Below, piece by piece: positions 21,969 through 47,392 of a DNA stretch of 64,000 bases. The notes beneath the pieces are model-generated. The model made no database searches. It was given only the letters and a program-made list of their open reading frames with translations, and was not told where the DNA came from. Within the stretch, counting starts at the first letter, position 1. Every line of letters starts with the position of its first letter. Origin of the DNA: a phage; NCBI GenBank assembly GCA_012441205.1, contig GCA_012441205.1_4705.1. One strand, given 5' to 3'. The position numbers and the translations under genes are program-made.

Positions 21969-22583
21969 CTAACGGCGTTTTGTACCGACCTTCCCATTTC
22001 GATGGTCATCAAGAATACGCCATTCTTCGAACAGGAGTTCGGCTGCGAAATAACCTACAGCGATGCTGTCTATCGCATGCTCATCAAGATTCGCTAACAC
22101 AACACCGTTTCTGGGTGTGATGTTCATGAGGTTCAACACTTTCTGGCGAACATCGTCCTTACCAACACGGGACGTCATAATCCCAACAGCGCGTTTTGCG
22201 CTTCGGTTATCAACCCCTAAGAAAGATACCGTAGGATCAAAATCGATAACCGTTGTATGAATCGCTGAAAACAGCTCGCTGAGCGCCATACCGCTTTGCT
22301 TGAAACGACCGATGAATGGCGTCTCACAAGCGACCGCTTGCGGCTGGTACTCTTGCAATAACGTTGTCAGTGAACGACGGTGTTCTTGGATACGTGCGGC
22401 ACGATTACCGTATCCAAGCGCAATATCGCCATCGGGATCATATCGACGTGAAGCGTGCCATGTCCCTGCATACAGCAGTTCAATATCTTCGACACGCACG
22501 TCCAAACGTAGTAACGACGCACCGAGTGTATCGGTGCCAGGGTCGATTGCCAGAATATCGTAAGCGTATTCTGGTGGGATCAT
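21969..22583 (-). CDS. RuvC-like Holliday-junction resolvase
   Basis: ILAIDPGTDTLG (cf. RuvC ILGIDPGSRVTG), acidic E in ACETPF, and C-terminal DEHAIDSIAVG (cf. DAADALAIAI); start overlaps upstream stop as ATGA. Confidence 0.65.
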   Translation of the reverse strand: MIPPEYAYDILAIDPGTDTLGASLLRLDVRVEDIELLYAGTWHASRRYDPDGDIALGYGNRAARIQEHRRSLTTLLQEYQPQAVACETPFIGRFKQSGMALSELFSAIHTTVIDFDPTVSFLGVDNRSAKRAVGIMTSRVGKDDVRQKVLNLMNITPRNGVVLANLDEHAIDSIAVGYFAAELLFEEWRILDDHRNGKVGTKRR

Positions 22584-30890: not shown

Positions 30891-31717
30891 TTAAAAAGTT
30901 CCTCTGTTTCACGTTAATTAAACAACGTATTGATTTCTATTTGACAGAATACGAACATCGTACGTATCTATCACTTAGGTAACGCTTACGCGTCGCGTTC
31001 ATGATACCATGCATCATGAAGGTAATATAGCCGTGAAAGGATTTGTGTTAACGCAAGGGTTTTGTTTGTTTTTTAAGAAGGGATGGATTTAGAAGAGGTG
31101 TTTCAAGGAAGGTAAACGAGAATAGGTATTTTGATTTAAGTAAGATGTTATCTGTATCCGTTAGAAGTGTATTGTCTAAGTTATCTTGTTTATCTTAGGT
31201 TTAATCGTTTTTATCTTGGTATGTTTAAGTTGTTTTTATTTAACTGTTAAAATGCTTATCTTCAAAACAATGGATAACATGTGTTTACTACGCTCGTTGA
31301 GTTATAACTCAACGGTAACACATGTCATCTGTGCATTACACTACGTTACATGCTAGTTAAATCGGATAACTCAAAAAAACATTTGTGATACTCTTCTTCA
31401 CGTTGTTCATCAGAGTATCTCGTCTATACTCATTGCATTCGTATACGACATAACCGTTACACGCTAACGCTACGCTTATAGCTTGATAACTCTAAGGATA
31501 AAAACATAAACTCGCTTCGCTCGTTTAGTTTTTCTTTTTCTTAGAGTTATCCTGTTGCTCGTCTCTAAAGGACTTCGCTCCTCCCCCGTCCCCCGAAGGG
31601 GCCGAGGTCGTGGAAATTTTACTTTCCAAATACATTTACAACATCTGTAAACTTTTACTCCAGGTACTTAATCTTATCATTAGAAATTATAAAAGAGAAA
31701 ATAAACACAAACATAAA
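30891..31717. other. AT-rich ORF-free region with direct and inverted repeats (candidate origin / promoter cluster / ncRNA locus)
   Basis: About 830 bp with no ORF of 60 aa or more; five TTATCT(T/G) repeats (31150-31260), GGATAAC/GAGTTATC repeats, palindrome CGTTGAGTTATAACTCAACG; no tRNA-like T-loop seen. Confidence 0.5.
30976..31038 (-). promoter_or_regulatory. tandem promoter-like motifs (TTAGGTAACGCTTACGCGTC and GAAGGTAATATAGCCGTGAAA on + strand)
   Basis: Minus strand reads CACGGCTATATTACCTTC; 90-130 bp upstream of minus gene 30108..30890. Confidence 0.45.
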
Positions 31718-31750
31718 CCTTCCCCCGACCCGTAAGGGAAGGAGGAAGGG
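31718..31750. terminator. nested hairpin element downstream of minus-strand gene 31761..32654
   Basis: CCTTCCcccga-CCCgtaaGGG-aa-GGAGGAAGG. Confidence 0.55.
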
Positions 31751-31760
31751 AGAGATTAAA

Positions 31761-32654
31761 TTATTCGGAAACGTTATAACCGAATACTGCTTTACCGTAG
31801 GTGTGAGTACCGTCAGCTAACGACAGCACCAACACATGGTTGTATGTAGCGTTAACGCCTTTATCGGTAGACCCGGTGGTAGCACCGTTATAGACAAAGG
31901 TAGCTGTTTGCAGATTGGTTTTCAGTTCATTGATGATATCATCACTTACACCAGTCTGTTCTTTAATCAGGGTGGTCAGGTTACCCGCTAAGCCTGCATC
32001 GATCTTGGTATCGTTACTGGTAATAGCTTGTAAACCTGCGGTGTAAGTACTGAAGTCTAACGGATAGGTTAACAGACGTGCTGAGGTCTTGGTACCATCG
32101 CCTTCATCAACGTAGGTTAAGTTACCCAGATTGGTAACCTTGATGATGTTAGCCAGATCCAGCGTGGTGTTATAAACTTTAACTTGAACAGAGCCATACC
32201 ACGCCAACGAATCTTCTTTGGCTTCCAGGGTGATCGTCTGGATACCATGCTGGTCGAAGGTAACCGGCGTAGCTAACGTTTCGGCTTTGATGTCTTTCGC
32301 TTTATCCAGGAACTTCTCACCGGAAGGCGTGATCATACCGTAGCGTTGAGCTACAAGGTCAACCACATCACCGATGGTGGTGTTCGCCTCAACGTTAACA
32401 CGTACAGCGATCTTCTGGAACCACTTAGCCAGATCCAGACGATGGTAGGTGACATCTCGGTTATTGAAGTAAGGGGTACCTTCACCAGGACTAAGTGTTA
32501 AAGTTGCTTCTGGAGCAGAAGGATTCTTTTCTTTAAGGACGTATTTAAGGTCGGTATATTTAAAGCTGGCACCAGTGTCAGCGTTAAGCTGGTTGATCTC
32601 ATCAACGATAAGTTGCCAAGGTGTTTTTAAAGTAAGCGATACTTGAGCAGTCAT
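31761..32654 (-). CDS. YYDR-domain paralog family member (structural protein candidate)
   Basis: Internal start MTAQVSL with GAGGAAG SD; shares YHRLDL ... LAWYGSV ... GYNV motifs with 43714, 45536, 46398 and 32794 genes. Confidence 0.55.
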   Translation of the reverse strand: MTAQVSLTLKTPWQLIVDEINQLNADTGASFKYTDLKYVLKEKNPSAPEATLTLSPGEGTPYFNNRDVTYHRLDLAKWFQKIAVRVNVEANTTIGDVVDLVAQRYGMITPSGEKFLDKAKDIKAETLATPVTFDQHGIQTITLEAKEDSLAWYGSVQVKVYNTTLDLANIIKVTNLGNLTYVDEGDGTKTSARLLTYPLDFSTYTAGLQAITSNDTKIDAGLAGNLTTLIKEQTGVSDDIINELKTNLQTATFVYNGATTGSTDKGVNATYNHVLVLSLADGTHTYGKAVFGYNVSE

Positions 32655-32793
32655 TTTCTTCCTCGATAGTTGGTACATCACTCTCAAAAGATGTAAGTGT
32701 TTACAGAAATTAATATATTTTATATTAAATGTGAATATTATGGAGAACGACTCCGAATCTCCTTTTCGACCATCAAAATCAGAGGACACGAAC

Positions 32794-33339
32794 ATGTCTA
32801 CTTTAGACTTTAACAAAGCAGCGAAATCCCTTCTGCTTGATCTTATTAACACCAAAGCGACCCGCACATTGGCTGAAGAAGAACTGCAGTTCGGTACTCC
32901 GCAGGAATCTTCCGAACATGAAAAGAACACCGTTATTCAGCTGGACGCGGCGGCTGAAGCAGCTAACCTGCAGGGTACTCAGCAGTTCTACTACGATCGT
33001 CTGGCTCTGTCTGACGTTTTCGCTGATGTAACTGGTGATGTTACTTTCGAACTGCCGCACGGTACTGACAGCATTCAGGCTTCTGAGCTGGTAAGCAAGC
33101 TGGTCACCAAATTCGGTCTGGCTTCCCTGAATGGTGAAATCAGAGAAGAAACCTTCCAGCTGTCTGCCGGTACTGTTGATGAGGTAATTCTGAATGCGAT
33201 CGAGGGTGGCCTGGTATACACTGGTACTCTGCGAGTTGCCCTGACCTACGCACTGGCACCAAAAGACGAACTGGCAACCGTTCTGGCGAATAACGTAGCT
33301 GAAGGTTTCGAGAAACCGACCGTTAGCGTTGTTGGCTAA
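32794..33339 (+). CDS. abundant small virion protein candidate, minimal member of YYDR-domain family
   Basis: Strongly biased E. coli-like codon usage; FYYDRLAL ... FGLASL ... LVYTGTLRVAL matches the family domain; GAGGA before ATG at 32794. Confidence 0.6.
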   Translation: MSTLDFNKAAKSLLLDLINTKATRTLAEEELQFGTPQESSEHEKNTVIQLDAAAEAANLQGTQQFYYDRLALSDVFADVTGDVTFELPHGTDSIQASELVSKLVTKFGLASLNGEIREETFQLSAGTVDEVILNAIEGGLVYTGTLRVALTYALAPKDELATVLANNVAEGFEKPTVSVVG

Positions 33340-33632
33340 TAAGCACATAGAGCAATAGTATGGGTTTTGTACAGCTCGGCTATTGATCTTCTACAATTTG
33401 GTTGTAACAATCTGCGTGGTTGCACGCTTATCTTTCTCATTGAACGCTTCGTATGAAGCGTGGTGTTGAAAGGGTTGTGGATCTCCTCAAGCGGCCAGGG
33501 ACCCAGACCAACCTGAATAAACACAAACACATGTTAAGCCCCTCCTCATCCGTTATTGGGTGGGGGGGGTCTTATACGTCTTTATGCGTTCCGTTCGTTC
33601 TGGAGCGTTTTAGGACGGTTTATGATGGTGTT

Positions 33633-34268
33633 TTACTCAACACTGAACCCGTTCAAGATGATCGCTTCATAACGCTTACGTTCACGACGTTTGCGTGCCT
33701 GCCAACCGTAGATGAATTTCTCATCTTTCTCACGACGTTCCGCTAATTCGATGTAATAGGTGCTCTGCATGTCCAGCATCGCATCGATGAGATAATCCTT
33801 ACCGGTTGCACCACGCTTAGCGATGTAAGCGTCGAGCGCGCTTAACGTCGCAGGTCCCATCAAACCGTCGGCGTTGATATTCTTCCAGTACGTTTGTCGG
33901 TTGTTCATGACGTTCAGATAACGTTGGAGGTTCTTAACCGGGACGGTTTTGCCAGCATTGATACCCAGGTCAAAGAGACGGTCAGCTAAGAACACAGAAC
34001 GTTTCATGACTTCGTCAAGTTTCATCTTATCCCAGAAGTGGGTCTTGTAGATAAAGAACGCCATTTCCGTGGTAAGGTTACGCATGTTACCGTCCCAGCC
34101 GAATTTCGTTTTCAGCGTGGTTTTGTATTGATCGGCGAGTGTTTTCGTAATGCCGTGGTTCGTGATTCCACCCGAGTCATCGGGATCGTCGACGTAACCT
34201 GCTTCGATGCTGGTTTTATCGCGAATGATAAATTCGCACGTGAAATCTTTCTCAGTAATCTTAGCCAT
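33633..34268 (-). CDS. endolysin, GH108-type muramidase with C-terminal peptidoglycan-binding domain
   Basis: EAGYVDDPDDSGGITNHGIT matches the GH108 signature EGGYxxDPxDxGGxTxxGIT; Trp/Gly-rich C-terminal half is consistent with PG_binding_3. Confidence 0.75.
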   Translation of the reverse strand: MAKITEKDFTCEFIIRDKTSIEAGYVDDPDDSGGITNHGITKTLADQYKTTLKTKFGWDGNMRNLTTEMAFFIYKTHFWDKMKLDEVMKRSVFLADRLFDLGINAGKTVPVKNLQRYLNVMNNRQTYWKNINADGLMGPATLSALDAYIAKRGATGKDYLIDAMLDMQSTYYIELAERREKDEKFIYGWQARKRRERKRYEAIILNGFSVE

Positions 34269-34394
34269 TAGAACTCCTCGTTTAAATAACGATTTAGAGG
34301 AACAGGAAGGGTCTAGAACGCGATAAACGATTTAACCCAGGCAAACCCTAGATTAAACTTTTCGAAGCGTTACAACGCGTTCTAGAACGTTGAA

Positions 34395-36443
34395 TTAAAT
34401 ACCCTTGGTTCCCTTCACGTGATGTGCAATTTCTTCAACCATTGCACGCAGAGCACGAAGTTGTTGGTCATGTTCGTACCAACCACCCAACAGAACCCCG
34501 CTATACACCATGGTGTCAAGACTTAACAGCCCTTTATCTGATACGTTGATCATTTCCGGGAACTGTTCTTGAACACGCTGTGCGATAACACCGATCTTCT
34601 CGACATCAGGATCGTAGTTGTGACGGAAACGGGCAAGTCCGGTATACGCCATTTCACGTAAACGATCACTGAAAGATTCCGGATGATCTTTCAGATAACG
34701 AATGTCATGTTTACTACGTTCATCCGAGCGAATGTAAGCGTTAGGAACATCGATATTGCTGTTGAAGTACAGCGCACTACCACCGCCTGCAGAGTTCCCC
34801 CAATAGAAGCGTGTGATCTCACCGCCACCATTCTCCGTGATGATGACATGTTTACCTAAACGCGTACCGCCACTACCATCAACGAAGACCAGTTTGTTTC
34901 CGCTGTAAGAACCCCAGAACAAACGTGTATCGATGATGTGCGTTGCAGCGAGGCGGGCGTTACGTGGCGTAGAATACACGGTGTTAACATCTTGCTGCGC
35001 TTGCGCATCGGAAGCGATACCATAGTTCTGTACGTTACCTAACCCAACCTGCGCTTTCGTAACCGCGTGTGGGTTATCACGACGGTTAGCGTGAGCGTTA
35101 ACCAGATCACCCGCTAATTTCTGAATTGCCCAGTTGGTAGACTGTGGTGTCATGTAACGGTTAGTTGCAGAACCACCTTGCGCTTCAGCTTGGTTAGCGG
35201 TTGGATAGTTCTCAACGCTTCCCAAACCGACCTGCGCTTTGGTTACTCTGTGTGGGTTGTTCTTGTCAGCGATGTGCGCATTAAGCGGAACTAACGCAAA
35301 GGTCTCAATGGACGCTTTGGTTGTGTTCGGTGCCATTAATCGGTTAGCTGCAACACCGGCACGCGCTTCTTCTTCAGAAGCCATCGGATAGTCTTGCACA
35401 TTCCCTAACCCAACCTGCGCTTTGGTTACTCTGTGTGGGTTGTTGTAATCGGCTTTATGTGCATTAAGTGGAATCAATGCGAACTGTTCAATCGCTGCAA
35501 CAGTGCGTAGCGGCGTCATGAAACGGTTGTTCGCTGTTCCGGCTTTCGCCTCATCATCCGAAGCGGTCGGGAAGTTATCAACGTTCCCAAGGTTAACCTG
35601 TGCTTTGGTGACGCTATGCGGGTTGTCTCGACGGTTAGCGTGAGCGTCGACTAGATCGCCCGCCAGTTTAGCAATCGCCCATCCAACCGTTTGTGCTGTC
35701 ATGTAACGGTCTGGTGCGGTACCGGCTTCTGCCTCCGCCTTGTTGGCAGTAGGATAGTTCTGTACATTACCTAGTCCGACTTGGGCTTTTGTGGTTTCGT
35801 GCGGGTTATCGGTACGGTTAGCATGTGCGTAATGCAGATCGGTCAGATCTTTATCCGCTGCTTGCATGTCTTTGCGTAACTGATCGATTGCCGCCCAGAG
35901 ACGGTTATCGGATGCAGCATCACCGATAAGTATTGCGGCTTTCAGTGAATAGATCGCTAAGCAAAGATGTTCGGTACCGTAGATAGCACTAACGTGGTGG
36001 ATGTGTGGTTCAGGCGGATAAAGTTCCGGTTTGTTCTTGATGTCGTCCCAGTTGATCGGACGATCGTCAAGTTTGAGTTCTTCGATAGCCTGATACAACG
36101 CGTCAATAAGACTTACGTAAACACCACCGATGATACGATAGTCGTTAACTAACGTCCCCTCGATATCATCGTTGATGATGGCGATGGCTGCACAGATTTC
36201 TTTACCAGCGTAAAGCGTAGCGTCCTGATACAAGAAGATGGGTTTGTAATCCACGCCGCGTACCAGTGTCTTACCGGTAAGCTTTTCAGTGATGACCAGA
36301 CTTTCGGTGAAGAACGGTCCGCCATCAAGAGCGTAACATTTGTTCTCGGTTCGTGGAACGGTATGCTCTTCACCAACGATGTGGTTGCTATCGAGCGTGC
36401 CGGTCCAGTCCTCGGGGTACTTCAGGGTAATTGGTGTTGACAT
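34395..36443 (-). CDS. tail fibre protein with five ~45-aa fibre repeats and C-terminal intramolecular chaperone (S74-like) domain
   Basis: Five repeats of NRxDNPHxVTKAQVGLGNVxNY...NRYMT (about 35125-35835); C-terminal SDERSKHDI ... GVIAQRVQEQFPEM ... LRALRAMVEE resembles the autoproteolytic chaperone of endosialidase/T5 pb1-type fibres. Confidence 0.8.
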   Translation of the reverse strand: MSTPITLKYPEDWTGTLDSNHIVGEEHTVPRTENKCYALDGGPFFTESLVITEKLTGKTLVRGVDYKPIFLYQDATLYAGKEICAAIAIINDDIEGTLVNDYRIIGGVYVSLIDALYQAIEELKLDDRPINWDDIKNKPELYPPEPHIHHVSAIYGTEHLCLAIYSLKAAILIGDAASDNRLWAAIDQLRKDMQAADKDLTDLHYAHANRTDNPHETTKAQVGLGNVQNYPTANKAEAEAGTAPDRYMTAQTVGWAIAKLAGDLVDAHANRRDNPHSVTKAQVNLGNVDNFPTASDDEAKAGTANNRFMTPLRTVAAIEQFALIPLNAHKADYNNPHRVTKAQVGLGNVQDYPMASEEEARAGVAANRLMAPNTTKASIETFALVPLNAHIADKNNPHRVTKAQVGLGSVENYPTANQAEAQGGSATNRYMTPQSTNWAIQKLAGDLVNAHANRRDNPHAVTKAQVGLGNVQNYGIASDAQAQQDVNTVYSTPRNARLAATHIIDTRLFWGSYSGNKLVFVDGSGGTRLGKHVIITENGGGEITRFYWGNSAGGGSALYFNSNIDVPNAYIRSDERSKHDIRYLKDHPESFSDRLREMAYTGLARFRHNYDPDVEKIGVIAQRVQEQFPEMINVSDKGLLSLDTMVYSGVLLGGWYEHDQQLRALRAMVEEIAHHVKGTKGI

Positions 36444-36456
36444 AACCTGGAGGTCC

Positions 36457-39054
36457 TTATAACGTGACTGTACCTAATTTGGTTGTCTTATTGAGATTAA
36501 TGACTGAGATCTGGGTATCGCTGGTCGTGATGGTGCCGATATTAACGCGCTGTCCTTTATCATCCTCTTGCTTGTGGATGGTTAATTCCAGCTCTAACTG
36601 GTTACCATTAGGAACAACGGAAACGTACCATGTTTTATTACCTGGTGAGCTATTATAGTCTTTTAGGTTATAATGGCCTTTAGGTAAGGTCATGGCCTTA
36701 CCAGCAAACAAACATGAAATATCCTCGTTGATATAAACGTCGAAACCGGAAGAAGCGATGACTGTTGAGGCCATTATTCGAGACGCGACGATACCACGAT
36801 TATAGTCGTCGATTGTGGTACCTATGACATTGAATACTTGCCCCCCGTTACCCATAATGGTCGATTCGCTAGTGTTTACGTAGCCGATACCCCAAGTCGG
36901 ATGAATGTTCCAGCGGTACCCACTGTTTTGTAAATATGTATACAAGTCTTCATAGGCCGCATTCACCCAACTACCATCACTTTTTCGTCCAGCCCTAAAT
37001 TGGAATGTATTGCTATTTCCAGATGTTCCTCGGCCAAGAGGGACATGTCCCGCCACTAACCAACCATCTGTACTTTGCATATACGCGAACGAACCGTACG
37101 CTCTGTTATCGGCCCAAATATTCACGGTATCAACACGTTCAACGTAGGCGATCACCTTTTGTACGCCGGTTATAGCGATCGAACCCTTGCGTGCCGACAC
37201 ACTAACTTCAGCAATTACGACACCCATTTTCCGCTGGCTGCTGTTAAATCCCAATACAACCATTAAACACGGTGCGTTTGTTGTTTCTGGAGGAATCGTT
37301 ATCGATTGTTTCCAGTCGGTGATTCCGCTGAGTTTTGTTCCAGTATATGCGTTCCAGACGGTTTGTCCAGCCGATTTCAGATTCTGTTCAGAAATAGAAA
37401 TGGCCTCGCCCTCAGGGATTAACGTGTCGTAATTGAGACCAATGTTGCTGGATAGACGAAGGTCGTTTAAGTAAGATCCGCTGAGTGTGACGTTACCGTT
37501 ACGATAAATTGTCAAGAATGGCGCAGCCAGGGAGTTTAATACCGTAAAGTTACTCGATGGCATGAAACCATAGACATCGATGCCATTACCGTGGTAATGG
37601 TAGTTTGTCCAACTACCTTGATAACTTACGGTACGTGCATCGTAGTGGCCTTGTCCAAGACCGCTGCTGGATAACGTGTATATCTTGGTTGCTGATAGAA
37701 ATGCGAGATATCCATGCGCTGCCAGAGCTCCAACTACCCTGTCTTTTATCTTTAACCAAGCTGAAGTATACAACGTACTGTCGGGATTCATTTTGGCTAT
37801 TTCATCGTAAGCCGTGCCTGCGAAGTTTCCGATAGTGTACGTACGTATATCCGGCTGTCCGTTATTGTCGTTCTGTACAGCAATTACTTGCCCAGAATCA
37901 TTGATATCGATATTACCGATACAGTTGTGAGCCCCCCACACCCAATATCCATCTTTATAATTGGATTCTCCTTGTGTAAATGTCGACGGTCCTCGCCACG
38001 CGATGCCGTTCGATTCGGCGTAGTAGGTAGCTTGTCCCGATCCTGGATTCATGGCGTATCTGTTATTGGTCGGGTCAAAATCGATGTAAAAATGATGCAT
38101 TCCTTGACGTTGACGGTTGTCCCGATCATTTGTCCACCACGACGAACCGACCAGAATTCGCGCCTTACCATTTTTTACAGTGGACCATAAACGTATTGCG
38201 GCGCGCCAGACGATTTGACCGATCCCGTTGGACGGGAAACTATTCGTACTGATGCTGTTGCAGACAACGAGCTCGCTGCTGTTGTTTATTTGAGTCCCTT
38301 CAATTGTAACGCCGTTTATGTTAGTAATCAGTGTTGCCGATACACTACCCCCTGTAGGGGCGATAGAGGAACGTTGAACGGTGTAAATTTTTAGTGATAA
38401 TTTATAGCCGCTCCGAATAGCTATACCAATGTAAATAGTTCCGTTAATTTCCCAACAACAAACATCGGGCATTGTTTCTTTGAAATCGGATAAAGCACCG
38501 TCGATATACATCGCAACGTGTTTACTGGCGTCGAATGTGCCGTCCGTTAACGCGATGAACATTTTGGCGTTATTGCCGTTGATATCAGCCGCTAATCCGA
38601 GTAGTATGTTGTTCTGATGACAGTAGATGGCTTTAGGTGCTAGATCCAACATAGCTGGTTGGTACTGTCGGCTTGTTGGTATTACGCTAGTAACTGCACC
38701 ATTTTGATCCGTTTTACAAATAACGTAATATACACCGTGTATGATGCTGTTTGTCGCTGACCTCAGTAGGACGATCGTCCCGTCAGATTCACGACATATA
38801 CCGTAATGGCGATAGTCGGTGATTAAACCGATAGCGCCATCGGCCGAACCTTCGATTGCCAGAGGAAAATAACTTTGGTCCCCAACCTGTTCGATATCGG
38901 TTGCGCCGATATCGATGTATTTTTCCATCTCAGTGTTGAACTCAGCGGTACTGTAGGCACCGAGATCGCTCGCCTTTAGTCCCGTTGGGTTGTCACGACT
39001 GGCGATACGTGTAGTAACGCTACTCACCAGTTCGCTGAACTTTTTCATTGCCAT
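36457..39054 (-). CDS. distal tail fibre / receptor-binding protein candidate
   Basis: 865 aa, Gly/Asn/Ser/Thr/Trp/Tyr-rich; N-terminus carries one degenerate fibre-repeat-like motif (RDNPTGLKASDLG). Confidence 0.6.
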   Translation of the reverse strand: MAMKKFSELVSSVTTRIASRDNPTGLKASDLGAYSTAEFNTEMEKYIDIGATDIEQVGDQSYFPLAIEGSADGAIGLITDYRHYGICRESDGTIVLLRSATNSIIHGVYYVICKTDQNGAVTSVIPTSRQYQPAMLDLAPKAIYCHQNNILLGLAADINGNNAKMFIALTDGTFDASKHVAMYIDGALSDFKETMPDVCCWEINGTIYIGIAIRSGYKLSLKIYTVQRSSIAPTGGSVSATLITNINGVTIEGTQINNSSELVVCNSISTNSFPSNGIGQIVWRAAIRLWSTVKNGKARILVGSSWWTNDRDNRQRQGMHHFYIDFDPTNNRYAMNPGSGQATYYAESNGIAWRGPSTFTQGESNYKDGYWVWGAHNCIGNIDINDSGQVIAVQNDNNGQPDIRTYTIGNFAGTAYDEIAKMNPDSTLYTSAWLKIKDRVVGALAAHGYLAFLSATKIYTLSSSGLGQGHYDARTVSYQGSWTNYHYHGNGIDVYGFMPSSNFTVLNSLAAPFLTIYRNGNVTLSGSYLNDLRLSSNIGLNYDTLIPEGEAISISEQNLKSAGQTVWNAYTGTKLSGITDWKQSITIPPETTNAPCLMVVLGFNSSQRKMGVVIAEVSVSARKGSIAITGVQKVIAYVERVDTVNIWADNRAYGSFAYMQSTDGWLVAGHVPLGRGTSGNSNTFQFRAGRKSDGSWVNAAYEDLYTYLQNSGYRWNIHPTWGIGYVNTSESTIMGNGGQVFNVIGTTIDDYNRGIVASRIMASTVIASSGFDVYINEDISCLFAGKAMTLPKGHYNLKDYNSSPGNKTWYVSVVPNGNQLELELTIHKQEDDKGQRVNIGTITTSDTQISVINLNKTTKLGTVTL

Positions 39055-39066
39055 TATTCACCTCGA

Positions 39067-39552
39067 TTAAATAGGCGAGTCGGGTAGCTGACCATCATCG
39101 ATCTCGATGGTGGCCACCTTACGTGTTGCAGCAAGATGTGATGTACCCTGGATTTTGTTCCAGGTGCCGATACGCATGGCGTTTTTGTAGCTGCTATCGC
39201 TATCGTTCAGCGTGTAAACAAAACCGCTATCGGTTACGGCAAGATAGATCCAGCCTACAGACTCACTGATGCCTGACACATCCAAAGTTGCTGCTGGCAC
39301 CGTCCCTACCACCGTGTTGTATTCCGCTGTACCTTGACCAATGCTGATCCGGCCGTTGCTGTAAGTGGCTGCCGGAAGCGTTTTATTTCGACTGAAGAAA
39401 AGAAACGGAAGGTAACGCTGAGTAACAAGCGGTGCAAGTTTAGGAGCCACTTCGGTCTTAACGTAGACATTTGTTTGTGCTGGCGTTACCTCGTGAGGGT
39501 TCTTTTGGGTGAGATACGCTCCCCATTCAGAAAGCAATGTTGATAGCTTCAT
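39067..39552 (-). CDS. small tail-fibre-associated protein (paralog of 39557..40072)
   Basis: N-terminus LSEWGAYLTQKNPHEVTPAQ carries the NPHxVTxAQ motif of the fibre repeats. Confidence 0.5.
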   Translation of the reverse strand: MKLSTLLSEWGAYLTQKNPHEVTPAQTNVYVKTEVAPKLAPLVTQRYLPFLFFSRNKTLPAATYSNGRISIGQGTAEYNTVVGTVPAATLDVSGISESVGWIYLAVTDSGFVYTLNDSDSSYKNAMRIGTWNKIQGTSHLAATRKVATIEIDDGQLPDSPI

Positions 39553-39556
39553 GCGG

Positions 39557-40072
39557 TTACCCCATGTAACGTTTTTGGCCGAGGATGAAGACTTTGTTGA
39601 ATACCACCGAAGTGATTCCTGTTGCGTTACAGCTCACCTGCCCGACGCGAATTGCTGTTGATGTATCGACCCCAGCACTACTCTGCCAGATCCAATCGAT
39701 CGATCCGTCTTTCTGACGAATGAAAAGATAACCGGTTTTGTTCGCCCAGTCGGAAGTAAGTTTTTTGATGTCTAGCGTTCCCTTCGCCAGAATATAGTCG
39801 GTACCGGCGATCATGACGGGTATTTCAGGATACGAGATTACCGTACCGCTGGCAGTAACGTTGCTGATGCGTTCGCTACGAATATCGGTACAGTCACCGA
39901 AATACGCTACGGGGAGTATCCCCTTAGGGAGCTTTTTGCCGATTCTCGTATCGATCGTGTTTTTATCGGGTGCGTCGATTTGCGCTGCGGTGACTTGGTT
40001 AGGGTTATCCTTCCTTGCGTACCATGTCGTCATGCGAGCACCCAATTCACTCATTTTTGTGCCCATTTTCAC
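39557..40072 (-). CDS. small tail-fibre-associated protein (paralog of 39067..39552)
   Basis: N-terminus MSELGARMTTWYARKDNPNQVTAAQ; similar layout to neighbour. Confidence 0.5.
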   Translation of the reverse strand: MKMGTKMSELGARMTTWYARKDNPNQVTAAQIDAPDKNTIDTRIGKKLPKGILPVAYFGDCTDIRSERISNVTASGTVISYPEIPVMIAGTDYILAKGTLDIKKLTSDWANKTGYLFIRQKDGSIDWIWQSSAGVDTSTAIRVGQVSCNATGITSVVFNKVFILGQKRYMG

Positions 40073-40123
40073 ATCCTATCGAAAAATAAAAAGAAGGAAA
40101 GGTGGGTAGAACCCACCCATCCG

Positions 40124-42277
40124 TTATAACGTTTCGAAGTCGGTTGCTTTGATAACCGCGTTGAAGTTGGCAAGGAATTCCTTAAGCAGTGCTTGGAAGA
40201 CATCACGAAACGCTGTGTTCGTCTGCAAGCTGGTTAAATAATCGTTCTTAAGGTAATCGCTCAGCTTACCGATCTTCTGCATCTTCTCGCCGTCTTGGTT
40301 CTCTCCAGGTTCTTGGCTGTTGATGTTAACCCATTTGATCCCTTCGAGATCACCATCGGCAAGGAAGTTGGCGGGTGTCTCATCGTCGTTCAGGATTTTA
40401 ATCGTATCACTGGATTCAATGCCACCGTAAGCTTCCAGAAGCTGGTTGACTGTTAGCTTATTGGTGTTGATTGAACCATTGACACCATCGATACCGATGC
40501 CTGCACCTGTGATGGATGTCGCCGAAAGATCGATCGGTCCGGTTAACTTACCACCGTTGATCGGTAACGCACCAACTTGCTCAGCGGTGTGTGTATGGTC
40601 AGCTAACGCCGCAAACGCCACGATAGACTTATATGTCGAATACGGCGTCATATACGCTGATTGGTTGGTGTTGTCAGCCGCTTCAGTATCGGTAGCGACA
40701 TTAAAGTTCTGCACGTTGCTGAGACCGACCTGCACCTTCGTTACTTCATGCGGGTTGTTCTTATTGACAACGTGTGCTGCAAAACCATCACCAGCTAAAG
40801 CAGTGATTGCCGCTTTTGTCGCAGCCGGTGTCATATAGCGGTTGGTTGCTTCACCCGTTTGCGCCTCTTCGTCGGAAGCAACAGGATAGTTCTCAACGCT
40901 TCCCAAACCGACCTGAGATTTTGTTACTTGGTGTGGGTTTTCGGTATTCGCAATATGACTACTGAACCCTTGACCCGCCAGTTGCTCGATTGCGTAACGA
41001 ACAAGTATTGGTGTCATGTACTTGTTGTTAACTTGACCATCGATAGCTTCTTGGGTGGTGGCAACCCCGAAGTTTTGCACGCTCCCCAACCCAACTTGAG
41101 ATTTTGTTACCCCATGGGGGTTATTGGTGTTACCGATGTGTTCGGTTACAGTTGGGGTGATTAATGCTGCGATAGCGGCTGCTGTGGTCGCAGGTGTCAT
41201 GTATTTATCGTTAGCAACACCCGCAGCAGCTTCTACGTTAGATGCTAAACCGTAGTTCAATACACTACCCAACCCAACCTGAGCCTTGGTTACCCCATGG
41301 GGGTTGTTCTTGTCTCCGGTATGGGTTGTCAACGAAGCATTAACGTTATCGATACGTGTACTTAAGCCATCGGTGATTGCTTTGATTGCGGCTCGTACAC
41401 CCGCTGGAGTCGTGTACAGATTTGTGGCCGTACCGGTAATAGTTGTATTACTATCGGCTACACCGTAGTTCTCAACGTTTCCGAGTCCGATCTGTGCCTT
41501 GGTCACCTTGTGTGGGTTGTTGTAGTTGCTGATGTGCGCAGCGGCACTATCACCACTCAGGTTAGCGATCATCTTACGTGTCATCGCCAACGTCATGTAC
41601 AGATTTTCACCGATGGTTTCCAGATCGCTCTCGGTCGCCGTTGTGAAGTTCTGCACATTCCCTAACCCAACCTGAGCCTTGGTTACCCCGTGGGGGTTAT
41701 CGCGACGATTCTCGTGCTGCAACAATGCGGTCATTGCTTTATTGAACCCTTCTTCAAGCGGTTCTTTCAATGATTCGATTGCAGCTACCACATCGTCCCA
41801 CGTCATTGTGTCGGTTTCGACATTATGCTGGTGGTTAATTGGCGGGAATACGGAAGGAACGTCGGCAACCTTTTCCCAGAATGTAACGCGAGGGTCGTAA
41901 AGGTTGTTGGCTAAAACGTTAAGAATTTGCTGCTGATCGAGTGTAAACTCACCCCCCAGTGAATAGTAGTTCAGTTGCAACTGTCCACTGAATGCGGTGT
42001 CCAACAGCATGATGGAACCGTATAATTCCAGGCCGGTCAGCGCAGCCATGGCACGGAAGGGGTGAGTGCATAAAAAGTCAACGCCTTCTTCCAGATACGC
42101 GTTTGTTTCAGGGTTATAGATCTTTAACCCATTACGAAAATATGGCGCGTATTTAGGAACGAGAAAGTTAAATCCGGTCCCCGTGGAAGGACGGACAGTG
42201 ACGAGTTCTTCTGGAACCCATGCGCCATCCAAATTCCCCTGCGGGTTATACGGAAGGCGTTTAATTTCATCTGTCAT
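40124..42277 (-). CDS. tail fibre protein with six fibre repeats
   Basis: Six repeats of NPHGVTK(A/S)QVGLG(N/S)V(Q/E)N(F/Y) (about 40867-41710); N-terminal domain resembles that of 34395..36443. Confidence 0.8.
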   Translation of the reverse strand: MTDEIKRLPYNPQGNLDGAWVPEELVTVRPSTGTGFNFLVPKYAPYFRNGLKIYNPETNAYLEEGVDFLCTHPFRAMAALTGLELYGSIMLLDTAFSGQLQLNYYSLGGEFTLDQQQILNVLANNLYDPRVTFWEKVADVPSVFPPINHQHNVETDTMTWDDVVAAIESLKEPLEEGFNKAMTALLQHENRRDNPHGVTKAQVGLGNVQNFTTATESDLETIGENLYMTLAMTRKMIANLSGDSAAAHISNYNNPHKVTKAQIGLGNVENYGVADSNTTITGTATNLYTTPAGVRAAIKAITDGLSTRIDNVNASLTTHTGDKNNPHGVTKAQVGLGSVLNYGLASNVEAAAGVANDKYMTPATTAAAIAALITPTVTEHIGNTNNPHGVTKSQVGLGSVQNFGVATTQEAIDGQVNNKYMTPILVRYAIEQLAGQGFSSHIANTENPHQVTKSQVGLGSVENYPVASDEEAQTGEATNRYMTPAATKAAITALAGDGFAAHVVNKNNPHEVTKVQVGLSNVQNFNVATDTEAADNTNQSAYMTPYSTYKSIVAFAALADHTHTAEQVGALPINGGKLTGPIDLSATSITGAGIGIDGVNGSINTNKLTVNQLLEAYGGIESSDTIKILNDDETPANFLADGDLEGIKWVNINSQEPGENQDGEKMQKIGKLSDYLKNDYLTSLQTNTAFRDVFQALLKEFLANFNAVIKATDFETL

Positions 42278-42308
42278 GATGCGCCCTTTACAAGTTGTTA
42301 GTAAGAGT

Positions 42309-42326
42309 GGGATACCCTGGGGTATC
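42309..42326. promoter_or_regulatory. palindrome GGATACC-ctgg-GGTATCC in divergent promoter region
   Basis: Perfect 7-bp inverted repeat between starts of 40124..42277 (-) and 42382..43662 (+); followed by AAAATATTACTGTAACTATAAAATAAG. Confidence 0.35.
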
Positions 42327-42381
42327 CTGTGTTAACAGCGGTAAAATATTACTGTAACTATAAAATAAGGGGGCCTCTACC

Positions 42382-43662
42382 ATGTATACATTGGTAAAAA
42401 CTTACGGATTACCCGTAGGTTCTGGCACGGCCTGGACAGCACTTGAGGCGGGTGAAAGTGTCCTGAGTACGTTGTTCTCAACGTATCAAAAACTCAAGAT
42501 CCAGGTTCATGAAAGCTATGCTGACCAGCAACAAGTTATTGATCTGTACGCATTTCAATCCGAGCTTCAAAATAGTAGCGATACGCTTAATGCGTGGTTG
42601 AAAGCGAAATCGGATGCGCATACCAACCTTCGCGGACAGCCCGGCGAGCTGTCGATTAAAACCCACAAGCTCTATTGCCATGACGCTATTACAGTAGGCT
42701 TTCTTCCCAAAGTCGGTAATAGCGGCTATCATCCGAGCAACGCGATCCCTGAGTCGGAACGCACTGATATCCTGTTGACGAAAGCAAATACGAATTACGA
42801 AAATATCGGCAAACATTGTCTATTCACCGTAGGCGGTTATGTTCACCCTCATGTCTACGGTAAAGATGTTGGCGTCTATATCCAGGGTGGGTTCAAAACA
42901 GCACAGCGCAGCCAAGAAAACGATATCGGCATGATTGATTTTAGCCGTATCGGGAGTTTGGAAATTCATGCTATCACAGAAGAGATGATTGCTGATTCCA
43001 CGAAGCTCTTGCCGTATAAGGACGAGATGTACTTACGGCTACCGCGCAAGGTCGCCGAAGATGAAACCGTTGCGCTGGTGTTCGGGGGATATTTACATCT
43101 TCTTGACGATTGTTACACGATCGTTAGTGACACGACAGCGAAAATAAACTGCATTAATATGTTTCTGTATGAAAGATACTTCCGCTCCCGCAAATACCTT
43201 GATTTAACATCCCTTGGTATTCTGCTGAACGAAGAAGACCCGCAGTCCGACATTGTTGCCAATCGTTTACTGTCCGATAAAGCATTAAAAGCTTGGGTGA
43301 CGCACCCCTGCAGTTTCTGGGTGTATATCAAAGCAACATCGATTCAGGTTACGCAAGAACCTTTACCACGAAGTGGCGTACCAGGACAATATTTCTTAGG
43401 TAAGAAACCGGAAGGACTGATTCGAGCCGATCTCGGCGAGTTACCGGCTTACGTGCAGACCTATGAAAAACCGTTATGGGTACTTCACTCGCGTTGGGGA
43501 CTTCGTAAGAACATGTTGTTTGAAAATACATTGTACAAACATACCCGCGTTAAGAGACTTAACGATACGCCTTATCTTCACCAGGTTTGGTTGGAAACGC
43601 ATGCGACGTTACAGACAGTACACAAGCTCGAATTGATCGATTCCAGTCAGAAAAACAAATAA
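42382..43662 (+). CDS. hypothetical protein
   Basis: 426-aa ORF; no motif recognised. Confidence 0.6.
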   Translation: MYTLVKTYGLPVGSGTAWTALEAGESVLSTLFSTYQKLKIQVHESYADQQQVIDLYAFQSELQNSSDTLNAWLKAKSDAHTNLRGQPGELSIKTHKLYCHDAITVGFLPKVGNSGYHPSNAIPESERTDILLTKANTNYENIGKHCLFTVGGYVHPHVYGKDVGVYIQGGFKTAQRSQENDIGMIDFSRIGSLEIHAITEEMIADSTKLLPYKDEMYLRLPRKVAEDETVALVFGGYLHLLDDCYTIVSDTTAKINCINMFLYERYFRSRKYLDLTSLGILLNEEDPQSDIVANRLLSDKALKAWVTHPCSFWVYIKATSIQVTQEPLPRSGVPGQYFLGKKPEGLIRADLGELPAYVQTYEKPLWVLHSRWGLRKNMLFENTLYKHTRVKRLNDTPYLHQVWLETHATLQTVHKLELIDSSQKNK

Positions 43663-43672
43663 CCAAACATAA

Positions 43673-43704
43673 CCCTCCTCCAACCCGTAAGGGAAGGAGG
43701 AGGG
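43673..43704. terminator. nested hairpin element (archetype copy) between convergent genes
   Basis: CCCTCCTCC-aa-CCCgtaaGGG-aa-GGAGGAGGG: perfect 9-bp outer stem, symmetric AA bulges, 3-bp inner stem, GTAA tetraloop. Confidence 0.65.
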
Positions 43705-43713
43705 AATATGCTG

Positions 43714-44619
43714 TTATGCTACATATAACGTCAGATAACCGTCGATGAGCGTATTCATCACACTGAGTTGAAGTACGACAGCTTTACTACCATCTGTACG
43801 TACACCGAACGGTAGTGTTTTGAATTGCTCTGGATCGGCTATTACTTGCGCATTCTGCAAGTTGAGCGGTCCAGGCATTGCTGACAATACCCAGCGATCG
43901 TTGACCATAAGGCCGTCGATCTCTTCAGAGAGACCCAATTGCAGTGCGTTCATTTCTGCGATTAGTGCCTCCGATTGCGTATCGCCTGAGGTTAGCGTAT
44001 ACCCATCGGTAAGCGATGCCAGAACACCAGCAGATACGAACCAGTTGTACGAAACAATAGCGCCTGGGAGTTTACTGCTATCTCGATCGATGATATAATT
44101 CAACCCAGCCAACATATTGTTGCGAACGAGGTTGTTGAGGTCATTATGTCCTGAGGTTAACTCAACAAGTAACTGACCAACCCATACTTGGTTACCGGGT
44201 TTAGGTGTTATCATAACCTGTATCGGTGACTTGGACTTATCCAGATCCGCGTCGACAATCTCGGTTTTGTTGAGAAGGATACCGTACGTCGATGCTAAGA
44301 CAGGTAGGATCTCAGAGACCTTGGTTAATGCATCTAAGGTTTCGATCTCGATGGGCCAGCGGTGCTGTCCGCCAGACCAGGTACCCAGTTTACCAAGATC
44401 GATGCGGTTATAATAGATGTCGACAGAGTTCACCAACCCTGAACCCGGTTGGGGATGCACGGTTAACTTGCTGTTACGCTTGTACCATGTGCTTTCAGAA
44501 GCCTCACCGATAACCAGTTTATCCAGCGTTACGCCTCGAGCATCGAAATCGCTATGCTTTCGAATCAGCAGAAAGAGGATTTCTTTCGATTCTAACCCCA
44601 GGATTTCACTGTACTCCAT
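43714..44619 (-). CDS. YYDR-domain paralog family member (structural protein candidate)
   Basis: IYYNRIDLG ... VWVGQLLVEL ... DRWVLSAMPGPLNLQNAQV shared with 46398 (DRWVLDDNIAPYNLYNAKV). Confidence 0.6.
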   Translation of the reverse strand: MEYSEILGLESKEILFLLIRKHSDFDARGVTLDKLVIGEASESTWYKRNSKLTVHPQPGSGLVNSVDIYYNRIDLGKLGTWSGGQHRWPIEIETLDALTKVSEILPVLASTYGILLNKTEIVDADLDKSKSPIQVMITPKPGNQVWVGQLLVELTSGHNDLNNLVRNNMLAGLNYIIDRDSSKLPGAIVSYNWFVSAGVLASLTDGYTLTSGDTQSEALIAEMNALQLGLSEEIDGLMVNDRWVLSAMPGPLNLQNAQVIADPEQFKTLPFGVRTDGSKAVVLQLSVMNTLIDGYLTLYVA

Positions 44620-44634
44620 TTAACACCCCTTAGG

Positions 44635-45519
44635 TTACGGTAGGATTTCTGCGCCCGTCGGGCCTGCCTTACGAGCTTCCAACGCACCAAGGTCGTATTT
44701 CAACGTCAGCGTATCGTTGGTGGTAAATAGGTTGTGATAAGTCGAAATCAGATCGGTAACCTGTGCGCCTACGATTTCGTTCATGTCGAAGGCAGAACCT
44801 TGACCATCATCAGCACGAACGATTTTGTCGCCAGCAGAGACCATCCCAATTTCAGAAATAACCGCGTACTCTTCACCACCTTCGGTGAGTTTAGCCACAT
44901 TGAGGTATTCGCTGATATCCCACGGCGTCCAGACCAAAGAGACTTTACAGCTATAATCGTAGTACTCTCCGGTTGCCACCAGAATTCCTGTTGTTGGAAT
45001 ATCCGGTCGGGGTGGGTTGAGGTTCTTGTCGGTTGGATGCCATTCAATAGTCTGAGCAACACCATCGATGTACTTGGTATATCGCGTGGAGCGGACAACG
45101 TTATCGAAATCGATGCGACGGCCGTAATAACAGATGTACTTTTTACCGTTTTCCAGTGTCTCAATACGACGTAACCCAAATCTAGCACGTTCGTCCGTGG
45201 TTAAATCGTTACCAACTTCACGCATCACGAAAGGTTTGATTTTCCATGGTGAAAGATCGCTTGCTTCGTGAGCGATCGGCATCGAGGAAGGGATGCCGTT
45301 AGCGTTGCGGATGAATTCGTGACCTTGGTTGCCGATACAGAAGTAACGTACAGCAGGATTACCCTCGGGGTAAACCTTTGATTGAATCTGAAGCTTTTCG
45401 TTCAAGGTGCTGTGTTCTTCCCATGCGTGAGGAAGACCGAGCGTAAGGTTAGTTTGTACTTGACCGCCGATAATCGTACGGACGATACGATCGGTAGCAC
45501 GGATTTGTGTAGAAGCCAT
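44635..45519 (-). CDS. hypothetical protein, possibly divergent member of the same family
   Basis: YYGRRIDF ... SLVWTPW weakly matches the family motifs. Confidence 0.5.
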   Translation of the reverse strand: MASTQIRATDRIVRTIIGGQVQTNLTLGLPHAWEEHSTLNEKLQIQSKVYPEGNPAVRYFCIGNQGHEFIRNANGIPSSMPIAHEASDLSPWKIKPFVMREVGNDLTTDERARFGLRRIETLENGKKYICYYGRRIDFDNVVRSTRYTKYIDGVAQTIEWHPTDKNLNPPRPDIPTTGILVATGEYYDYSCKVSLVWTPWDISEYLNVAKLTEGGEEYAVISEIGMVSAGDKIVRADDGQGSAFDMNEIVGAQVTDLISTYHNLFTTNDTLTLKYDLGALEARKAGPTGAEILP

Positions 45520-45535
45520 GTCTTTTCCTATTTAA

Positions 45536-46387
45536 TCAGTTATATTGCATCAACAGGATACCGCCGTAGTTCGTGCAGTAATCTTGGCTAAGCGTAACGA
45601 TAACAGCGTTAGCGAACGCAGGGTTAACAGGATAACCCTGTGCGATAAGTTCTGTTGTTTTACCGGTTGCAAGCACGGTGGCTCCGTAAAGGTTGTTTTC
45701 GTCTTCACGGCCGTTATAAACCCATGGGGTTGGCGCAACGTTGTTGAATAAGCTAACCAATGCGCTTAAGTTACCACCAACTTTTAACCCGGCGAGATCG
45801 GAACGGATAGCTGTACAGTCTATAGCGTAACTGTAGACCAATGCCTGGATACGATTTGCGGTGTAGTACGGGAAATTGAGACCGGTCATCACCGAAGTCT
45901 TCATCATCCCCGCAATATCGTGGGCACTATCGAGGAGATAGAACGTAACACTTCCCGTCCAAGCCAATCCGGTTGTTTTCAATTCTACGGTGTGAGGGAA
46001 CGGATACTCATCACCTCGTACGATCGGAGAATCGACGCAGCTATCCTGATCGATAACGATTCCGTACGTTGATTGAATCAGAGGGATAAGATCGTGCGTT
46101 GTTTTAACCCCAGCATCGATAGCAAGCTTCGGTTCCATTCCCAAGAAGAAGTCTTGGATAGGGATACGATCGTACCACACGTAGCTGCTTTCGCGGTATT
46201 GTGCTGGTGTTACTGTTGCCGAAGGGGATACCTTAGCGCGAGTGTTTCGGCTATACGCGTGGTTTCCGTTTTCAGCAACATCCGTGATATCAATTGCATC
46301 GAAGTTAAAGTCGAAGTCAGGATTGGCTGCCTGAATAAGTTCAGCGACCAGTACTTTAGGACTTTTGTTTAACAATTTCTGACTCAT
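45536..46387 (-). CDS. YYDR-domain paralog family member
   Basis: VWYDRIPIQ ... LAWTGSVTFYL ... QDYCTNYGGILLMQYN. Confidence 0.6.
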   Translation of the reverse strand: MSQKLLNKSPKVLVAELIQAANPDFDFNFDAIDITDVAENGNHAYSRNTRAKVSPSATVTPAQYRESSYVWYDRIPIQDFFLGMEPKLAIDAGVKTTHDLIPLIQSTYGIVIDQDSCVDSPIVRGDEYPFPHTVELKTTGLAWTGSVTFYLLDSAHDIAGMMKTSVMTGLNFPYYTANRIQALVYSYAIDCTAIRSDLAGLKVGGNLSALVSLFNNVAPTPWVYNGREDENNLYGATVLATGKTTELIAQGYPVNPAFANAVIVTLSQDYCTNYGGILLMQYN

Positions 46388-46397
46388 TGTTTATTCC

Positions 46398-47333
46398 TTA
46401 GCCTTGTTCTTCTGGAGAACGACCCTGGAGGCTTGCGGTATGTCCGTCGACGTTGTAATAGAAAATCAATGGACCGCCGACAGCAGTACAGTAGTTTTCA
46501 TCCAGACTGATCTCGATACCGTATTGGTAACCTGCTCGTGCTGGAATACGTCCACCTAACTCGCCGTTGAAAGCCACTTTAGCGTTATACAGGTTATACG
46601 GTGCGATGTTGTCGTCTAATACCCAACGATCGGTAGTCATTTCAGCCAGAAGATCGGCAACCACCACATCGCTAATAACGGTACCTGTTACCAGCGAAGC
46701 CAGCAGTTCACCGTAATCAGAGGTATCACGACTGTAACTGTAAATCTCACCGCTAGCGCGTACGCCTTGACCAAAGAACTTAAGACCATCCAGCTCCTTG
46801 ATCGCGATAATATCATCAAGATTCGGTACACGCGACTTCATCAAGATACGAACGCTCCCCGTCCAAGCCAGGCAGTTAGATGCGACACGAAGCAATTGTC
46901 CGTTAACAGTATCCCAGTTAAGTTCGTCGTTGACGATTTCTTCCGCGGTAAGACCAAGACCGAAACGTTCTTTGATGATAGGCCAGATATCACGCATCTT
47001 GGCGGCGTCTGGCGCATCGATAAGAATAGGCGCTACGTTACGCAGATACGCACCGATATTGATACGATCGTAATACAGCGTCGTCGAACCTTCATAATCG
47101 TCTAACTCGGTAAGCTTAGCGGTTGCTGTCGCCGTAATCTGGGTGTCGCGCTCATAGGCGCTTTGGTTGGTGGTTGGTGTTCCTAAAACCAATAATTCAG
47201 GGGTTAGGATATGCTCTCCGTTCTGAGGTGGGTTATCGTGGTTGATAAGACCATACACGAGATCGGATGAGGGTAAAGAGACGTCGACCGGGTAAAGTTC
47301 GGTGTCGTCAATAGTTGTTACCGTATCACTCAC
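46398..47333 (-). CDS. YYDR-domain paralog family member
   Basis: LYYDRINIG ... LAWTGSVRILM ... DENYCTAVGGPLIFYYN. Confidence 0.6.
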   Translation of the reverse strand: MSDTVTTIDDTELYPVDVSLPSSDLVYGLINHDNPPQNGEHILTPELLVLGTPTTNQSAYERDTQITATATAKLTELDDYEGSTTLYYDRINIGAYLRNVAPILIDAPDAAKMRDIWPIIKERFGLGLTAEEIVNDELNWDTVNGQLLRVASNCLAWTGSVRILMKSRVPNLDDIIAIKELDGLKFFGQGVRASGEIYSYSRDTSDYGELLASLVTGTVISDVVVADLLAEMTTDRWVLDDNIAPYNLYNAKVAFNGELGGRIPARAGYQYGIEISLDENYCTAVGGPLIFYYNVDGHTASLQGRSPEEQG

Positions 47334-47392
47334 GGTGACCTCCTCGCCAGGAATTAGATAAAAAAGACTTTACGATTTGCTGCGCTATCACG

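Follow-up and report, generated by a model that had tools for sequence, protein, structure and literature searches.

Five DUF7941 genes and a DUF7208 gene

The stretch of DNA discussed here, called the window below, comprises 64,000 nucleotides from a phage (NCBI GenBank assembly GCA_012441205.1, contig GCA_012441205.1_4705.1). Its subject is a group of six genes between positions 31,761 and 47,333, referred to as A to F, which an original prediction made from the sequence alone had put together as one paralogous family. Where does this DNA belong? Bases 43000-48000 of the window are 96.5% identical to the DNA of Escherichia phage vB_EcoM_Goslar, a member of the genus Goslarvirus and a nucleus-forming jumbo phage with a genome of 237 kb, and the region from 29 to 62 kb is collinear with Goslar gp018-gp042 throughout. 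All six open reading frames (ORFs) were confirmed at the following coordinates, and each of the six has a Shine-Dalgarno-like sequence upstream.

Gene A, 31761..32654, minus strand, 297 amino acids: full-length DUF7941 protein with an N-terminal domain (NTD, residues 6-163), a linker (164-193) and a C-terminal domain (CTD, 194-294); Goslar gp22
Gene B, 32794..33339, plus strand, 181 amino acids: short DUF7941 protein with the NTD (residues 5-153) and a linker-like tail, without the CTD; Goslar gp23
Gene C, 43714..44619, minus strand, 301 amino acids: full-length DUF7941 protein; Goslar gp31
Gene D, 44635..45519, minus strand, 294 amino acids: DUF7208 baseplate spoke protein; Goslar gp32, homolog of phiKZ gp139
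Gene E, 45536..46387, minus strand, 283 amino acids: full-length DUF7941 protein; Goslar gp33
Gene F, 46398..47333, minus strand, 311 amino acids, GTG start: full-length DUF7941 protein; Goslar gp34

Gene B is divergent from gene A and convergent with an endolysin gene at 33633-34268. The direct Goslar orthologs of the DUF7941 genes, gp22, gp23, gp31, gp33 and gp34, agree with them in gene order and in domain layout, gp22 being full length and gp23 lacking the CTD. Amino acid identity to the Goslar orthologs is 88.9% for A, 87.3% for B, 98.7% for C, 97.6% for D, 98.2% for E and 97.7% for F.

Apart from D, the six genes are genuine paralogs of the DUF7941 family. Pairwise BLASTP among these five gives E values from 2e-19 to 4e-5, except for A-B (0.61) and B-E (0.07), and these two pairs are connected through other members. 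When a profile is made from four members, it retrieves the fifth among the 303 window ORFs of at least 60 amino acids with E values from 1e-9 (B, 1.3e-9) to 4e-33 (F), while the next-best window ORF stays at E of at least 0.05; a profile scan of the same ORF set gave no additional family member. Each of the five proteins is a match to Pfam PF25613 (DUF7941), with E values from 1e-18 to 7e-63 and scores of 177 bits for A (5.7e-52), 68 for B (1.2e-18), 184 for C (5.2e-54), 162 for E (3.3e-47) and 213 for F against a gathering threshold of 27, and the match of gene B spans positions 4-174 of the 276 in the Pfam model. They also match PHROG 1037/2935, 'virion structural protein', and all are acidic, with isoelectric points (pI) of 4.3-5.0. 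The domain, which had not been recognised in the original prediction, is therefore a catalogued one, known as Pfam DUF7941, as PHROG 1037/2935 and as 'paralog family B' of Salmonella phage SPN3US.

The conserved blocks named in that prediction hold up across an alignment of 106 diverse homologs, whose consensus reads Y.RL.L / YGL.L / S..W.G / WV / C....G.L.LHYN, and Y88, R90, G159, W237, G257 and G287 are conserved in at least 90% of them. The shared domain is, however, not of about 90 amino acids as had been proposed: the unit of the family consists of an NTD of about 150 amino acids, a conserved linker of about 28 (L......L.GL.YP) and an optional CTD of about 100, the last of which is present in four members of the window, gene B having only the NTD and a linker-like tail.

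What, then, is gene D? It is a member of another Pfam family, PF23838 (DUF7208, E 3.3e-95), has no PF25613 match, and matches the Protein Data Bank (PDB) chains of its Goslar ortholog (11lx/11pb/36za) at E 5.5e-199 and those of phiKZ gp139 (9xpg/9xqd) at E 1.5e-42. BLASTP of gene D against each family member gives E above 0.5, and it is absent from the family profile searches over the window ORFs. A profile-profile comparison between DUF7941 (106 sequences) and DUF7208 (62 sequences) gives a probability of 2%, and the gp32 and gp139 chains do not appear among the structural matches to a model of F. The idea of D as a remote family member was accordingly rejected on BLASTP, profile, profile-profile and fold searches alike. 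The likeness of D to the family is only short and motif-like (YYGRRIDF against YYDRI), and there is hardly any chance of a single family that takes in 44635-45519 with the other five genes. The supposed tandem of four members turns out to be three DUF7941 genes with the DUF7208 gene D in between.

In a profile search over 1.84 billion cluster representatives, 2,381 clusters reached E <= 1e-3, and for 940 of them E was 1e-10 or lower. An architecture scan of 156 proteins, made up of the top representatives of these clusters together with the six genes of the window, showed the canonical NTD-linker-CTD layout in 96 and a layout with the NTD only, like that of gene B, in about 14. In about 22, two or three NTDs are joined covalently in tandem, with the linker motif L......L.G after every NTD. 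A duplicated CTD occurs in seven. In a few of the scanned proteins the NTD module is an N-terminal fusion to very long proteins, and the partners found downstream of the module include Laminin_G_3 (a ConA-like lectin domain), He_PIG, Ig_2 (immunoglobulin-like), SPRY and Gly_rich_2. Fusions to glycoside hydrolase, carbohydrate-binding and leucine-rich-repeat domains have been described for Goslar gp86, gp92 and gp161 (bioRxiv 10.64898/2026.04.21.720040). A tblastn search with gene F hit 124 phage genomes, all of 210-322 kb, with up to nine copies per genome, and the named structural matches in BFVD belong to phiKZ-like (chimallivirus) jumbo phages too; the family does occur in these phages. Is it confined to them? 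The Goslar preprint calls DUF7941 exclusive to chimalliviruses (bioRxiv 10.64898/2026.04.21.720040), which is contradicted by a report that, according to InterPro, DUF7941 is found in Spaid-like proteins of male-killing Spiroplasma and in three other Spiroplasma species (PMC13375240).

As to the fold, the sole match to the model of F is the NTD of phiKZ gp127 (9xqd_0), at about 14-17% identity, so that the NTD shares the fold of the only solved member of the family. Searches for canonical tail tube, sheath or baseplate folds gave no significant structural match to the shared domain; in the strict sense, therefore, it does not map to a well-characterised tail tube or baseplate fold.

Published relatives, abundance and divergence

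For these genes the domain, the abundance and the proposed mechanism are all published already, as the Goslar preprint describes DUF7941 for exactly their orthologs (bioRxiv 10.64898/2026.04.21.720040). The family has also appeared under other names. Thomas and colleagues reported in 2016 a '17-member paralog family (gp138 to gp154)' in SPN3US (PMC5105663), which was named paralog family B in 2017 with 20 members, gp141 and gp160 among them being present in more than 300 copies each (PMC5694885). In our searches the DUF7941 NTD was confirmed in SPN3US gp83, gp138-145, gp148, gp151, gp154, gp160 and gp237, the last of which consists of the NTD and the linker. It is to be noted that six proteins listed in family B, gp146, gp147, gp149, gp150, gp152 and gp153, match neither Pfam DUF7941 nor our NTD and CTD profiles; they may represent a divergent branch, or else family B as published may be of mixed composition. 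A single family underlies the names SPN3US paralog family B and Pfam DUF7941, and phiKZ gp127 and phiKZ gp143 belong to it as well.

SPN3US resembles the phage of the window in several points (PMC5105663, PMC5694885, PMC10052503): the Pfam family and the NTD, linker and CTD modules are the same, there is one abundant full-length member together with one abundant short member (gp141 and gp160), and gp83 is flanked by wedge and spoke genes, which is also the position of E and F here. It differs in that most of its roughly 20 members stand in a single tandem array, Goslar having 10 members (five of them in the window), and in that all but gp237 have been assigned to the head experimentally, which conflicts with the location proposed for Goslar. 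BLASTP against SPN3US pairs A with gp141 (4e-13), E with gp143 (5e-20), F with gp138 (1e-15), B with gp140 (2e-8) and C with gp139 (5e-10). One-to-one orthology with SPN3US or phiKZ members was nevertheless rejected, identity being only 20-30%, and only the pair of A and gp141 is suggestive. phiKZ (PDB 9xqd; PMC13250141) stands further apart, with just three members and about 14-17% identity to F, and of its gp127 only residues 1-150 are modelled, in one copy per star lobe.

The SPN3US head proteomics, the cryo-electron microscopy of Goslar and phiKZ and a study of phiKZ lysis had not previously been brought together for this family; in the lysis study gp143 is considered as a cytoplasmic regulator only (PMC12894885). 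Once they are put side by side, the published claims conflict both on location (head versus baseplate) and on role (structural versus lysis-regulating). The contribution of the present analysis is thus to remove a false sixth member, to join separate literatures and to expose this conflict on location and role.

How abundant are the products of these genes? The original prediction had noticed that the shortest member has the strongest codon bias after a 740-amino-acid gene and had taken its product to be abundant, and it was right in both respects. The effective number of codons (Nc) of gene B is 34.5, second among 59 genes behind the 740-amino-acid capsid gene (Nc 30.1), and in adaptation to the codon usage of the capsid gene B ranks second and A fourth. 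By mass spectrometry the Goslar virion contains about 580 copies of gp22, 2,140 of gp23, 8.5 of gp31, 112 of gp33 and 27 of gp34, and gp23 is the most abundant Goslar virion protein outside the atomic model (bioRxiv 10.64898/2026.04.21.720040). The codon bias of B and A is thus in line with the copy numbers of gp23 and gp22. Few components of chimallivirus particles are more abundant than this family, which accounts for about 2,700 subunits per Goslar virion and has up to about 20 paralogs in SPN3US.

These abundant proteins are at the same time the divergent ones. The difference from Goslar is confined to A and B, which show about ten times greater protein divergence than C, E and F and lie in a mosaic block of 89.7% DNA identity. 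The nonsynonymous substitution rate (dN) against Goslar is 0.06-0.07 for A and B and 0.006-0.011 for the copies in the baseplate module, C, E and F, a difference of about tenfold. Relative to the synonymous rate (dS), dN/dS is 0.28 for A and 0.29 for B, compared with 0.004-0.12 for neighbours of similar dS and 0.03 for the capsid gene. Such raised dN/dS is unusual for very abundant proteins and expected of exposed surfaces. Substitutions are not spread evenly: residues 137-209 of gene A, which cover the end of the NTD and the linker, have none against Goslar, while there are 11-14 per 100 residues elsewhere.

The mosaic block itself extends over 30458-37884. Within it, bases 30802-36993 are only 89.7% identical to Goslar with 130 gap columns, and 30458-30801 and 36994-37884 have no blastn match to Goslar, the remaining region being about 96-96.5% identical. 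A gp26-like gene at 36457-39054 has 66% protein identity to Goslar with saturated dS, and because of these two values it suggests a swapped receptor-binding region.

Filament formation and location on the virion

What could such proteins build? Purified Goslar gp22 forms filaments, as has been shown for gp22 only; in AlphaFold 3 dimers the linker of one subunit, together with its CTD, docks on the NTD of the next in a head-to-tail manner; and the Goslar DUF7941 orthologs are non-enzymatic virion proteins (bioRxiv 10.64898/2026.04.21.720040). In our model of a natural tandem (predicted template modelling score 0.56, from an 18-sequence alignment), the linker between NTDs has a predicted local distance difference test score of 91-95, while the terminal linker, which has no following NTD, has 49-57. 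The likeliest mechanism is that repeating units of NTD and linker self-assemble head to tail into thin and flexible filaments, most of which would consist of B (gp23) and A (gp22). Indirect support for it comes from the covalent NTD arrays, from the linker scores in the tandem model and from the invariant linker of gene A. C, E and F, with copy numbers of only about 8, 112 and 27, would serve as adaptors or anchors, and probably at least one would cap the gp32 spoke like gp127 in phiKZ; some filaments might carry adhesin or hydrolase domains. In chaperone-usher pili, too, subunits are joined by an extension that completes the neighbouring subunit or docks on it. As an analogy they are alike in that a flexible segment binds the next globular domain and in that the product is a thin fibre able to carry an adhesin, but there is no similarity in sequence or fold, neither chaperone nor usher is involved, and the docking geometry of DUF7941 is only predicted.

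We give a probability of roughly 0.6 to the reading that these genes encode a filament-forming virion family, in which A and B make the bulk polymer and C, E and F are adaptors, and which forms an external adhesive appendage. The polymer is most likely external and adhesive, because the same N-terminal module bears lectin, immunoglobulin-like and SPRY domains elsewhere, and the raised dN/dS of A and B agrees with this. If so, the family may be a new kind of host-finding appendage. Searches of the literature for 'hairy' or 'curly' fibres on Goslar led only to unrelated Rak2-like phages.

Where is such an appendage attached? Two further genes of the window bear on this question.

Baseplate wedge gene, 47393..49804, minus strand: Goslar gp35, homolog of phiKZ gp128 and SPN3US gp82
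phiKZ gp130 homolog, 42382..43662, plus strand: Goslar gp30, matching PDB chain 9xqd_L (PHIKZ130) at E 4.5e-24

F and E sit between the wedge gene and the spoke gene D, and C sits between D and the gp130 homolog. The arrangement is kept in phiKZ (gp126-gp127-gp128-gp129-gp130) and in SPN3US (gp81-gp82-gp83-gp84), and C, E and F are tied to the baseplate module because they are interleaved with spoke, wedge and gp130-like genes. The wedge gene matches PDB chain 11lx_Bh with 1854 bits (from query residue 25), phiKZ gp128 at E 1.9e-110 and SPN3US gp82 at E 6e-64, and phiKZ gp130 is the star-lobe connector in the outer peripheral baseplate (PMC13250141). In phiKZ the NTD of gp127 has been modelled at the distal end of a band of five gp139 dimers (PMC13250141), and gp127, together with gp126 by fitting, has been placed in baseplate density (PMC13250141; bioRxiv 10.64898/2026.04.21.720040). 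The Goslar preprint proposes that the family is 'universally' baseplate-associated, in a 'baseplate fiber cloud', and does not mention SPN3US (bioRxiv 10.64898/2026.04.21.720040).

Several published observations weigh against the reading that we prefer, above all against attachment to the baseplate. The Goslar maps contain no DUF7941 density (bioRxiv 10.64898/2026.04.21.720040), and the placement of gp127 is that of an AlphaFold model docked into a map of about 4.4 Å (PMC13250141). In SPN3US, 19 family-B proteins (gp83, gp138-154 and gp160; Table S2), the abundant gp141 and gp160 among them, stay in the DNA-filled tailless heads of a tail-tube amber mutant, 255(am107), purified on two caesium chloride (CsCl) gradients. 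The normalised ratios of head to wild type are 1.06-1.67 for family B, 1.39 for the capsid protein and 1.40 for the portal, and tail and baseplate proteins are below 0.07. Even gp83 is kept (1.20), although its genomic neighbours encode the wedge gp82 (0.018) and the spoke gp84 (0.056), both of which disappear from these heads; an independent SPN3US tailless mutant agrees with the head assignment (PMC5105663). The one family member that behaves as a tail protein in this dataset is gp237 (0.06), which has no family-B label in Table S2 and has one in the 2017 list. Retention of family B in heads therefore argues against a general anchorage to the baseplate. A further point comes from phiKZ gp143, which is NTD-only and encoded beside the endolysin gene like B, and which is non-essential and behaves as a cytoplasmic holin regulator (PMC12894885).

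Could most members, including the abundant orthologs of A and B, be associated with the head instead, as capsid or neck fibres or decorations, most plausibly external, with the tail position reserved for a specialised member (phiKZ gp127 or SPN3US gp237, for example)? This is a serious possibility, to which we give somewhat less than an even chance. The ratios in tailless particles and the agreement of two independent mutants speak for it, and so does gp141, abundant and retained in heads, as the best match of gene A beyond the Goslar group. Adhesin-type fusions would suit an external appendage at any point of attachment, and head decorations with immunoglobulin-like domains are a known theme, as in Hoc of T4. 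Nevertheless, no DUF7941 density has been reported on the capsids or necks of Goslar or phiKZ, while gp127 and the fitted gp126 are in baseplate density; moreover, since the SPN3US and Goslar members are only 20-30% identical, the location may differ between phages, and filaments that assemble by themselves could tangle with the heads while these are being purified.

Retention in heads would also be explained if the abundant members were internal and entered the head along with the DNA, in the manner of the PF12699 ejection or inner-body proteins. The number of gp23 copies, about 2,140, resembles that of the internal protein gp58, about 2,150 (bioRxiv 10.64898/2026.04.21.720040), the PHROGs category is 'head and packaging', and the acidity of all five proteins points the same way. 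We regard an internal location as improbable, however: of the eight SPN3US head proteins for which cleavage by the prohead protease was detected in 2017, none belongs to family B (PMC5694885); the modelled gp127 lies on the baseplate, at the exterior of the particle; and A and B exceed the neighbouring structural genes three- to sixfold in dN/dS. Lectin, immunoglobulin-like, SPRY, glycoside hydrolase and leucine-rich-repeat fusions would make little sense within a capsid.

A different kind of role is suggested by phiKZ gp143, an NTD-only DUF7941 protein of about 177 amino acids (E 4e-12), which advances holin triggering by 10-15 min via the N-terminal domain of the holin (PMC12894885). It is dispensable in transposon-ESSENTIALITY data, from two preprints covering phiKZ and PCH45. 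Gene B is likewise a short paralog adjoining endolysin and fibre genes, and it might be mainly a cytoplasmic, holin-binding regulator of lysis timing whose presence in the virion is secondary. We consider this unlikely for B. The gene for gp143 lies between the holin and endolysin genes on the same strand, a layout that gene B does not have, since B is convergent, and not co-transcribed, with an endolysin gene of a different family. A phmmer search over the window with phiKZ gp140-gp144 found only a homolog of gp140 (21972-22646) and no holin or spanin, and homologs of gp141, gp141.1 and the holin gp142 were not detectable anywhere in it. Unlike gp143, furthermore, gene B has an extreme codon bias and an ortholog that is a major virion component; second rank in codon bias and about 2,140 copies per virion far exceed the needs of a regulator.

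It is also tempting to combine these elements: the bulk of the A and B orthologs, about 2,700 subunits or roughly 60 MDa per virion, might be on or in the head, with a few specialised copies at the spoke tips, and the short paralog might in addition time the holin. We put this forward only tentatively. If it were true, the published 'baseplate fiber cloud' placement would be wrong for the bulk of the family, and virion assembly would be linked to lysis.

Neighbouring genes and surrounding sequence

Some minor observations were made around these genes. The wedge ORF as called mechanically has a TTG start at 49873 and 826 amino acids, while the solved Goslar chain has 803; codon 24 of the ORF is a GTG (49804) with GGAGG ahead of it. 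Because the solved chain aligns from residue 25 and GGAGG precedes this GTG, the true wedge gene is probably 47393-49804 with the GTG start, not the TTG at 49873, and the overlap with the start of the portal gene (49832) therefore vanishes. Fibre genes at 34395-36443 and 40124-42277, both on the minus strand, are orthologs of Goslar gp25 and gp29; they have in common multiple NPHxVTKAQVGLGNVxN repeats and match each other at the DNA level, and the C-terminus of gp25 is annotated as a Peptidase_S74 chaperone domain.

Next to gene A, an AT-rich gap of 870 nucleotides (30891-31760), in which there is no ORF of at least 80 amino acids, separates it from a gp21-like gene. The Goslar counterpart of this gap is likewise unannotated, and an Rfam scan of the window, the gap included, gave no family. 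A strong terminator-like hairpin lies at 31742-31718 on the minus strand, directly past the stop codon of gene A.

Finally, a stop-free antisense frame of 776 codons at 59259-61586 on the plus strand covers the whole major capsid gene (59364-61586, minus strand). Its Nc of 31.5 mirrors the extreme codon bias of the capsid gene, and the frame is most likely a by-product of that bias and not a gene.

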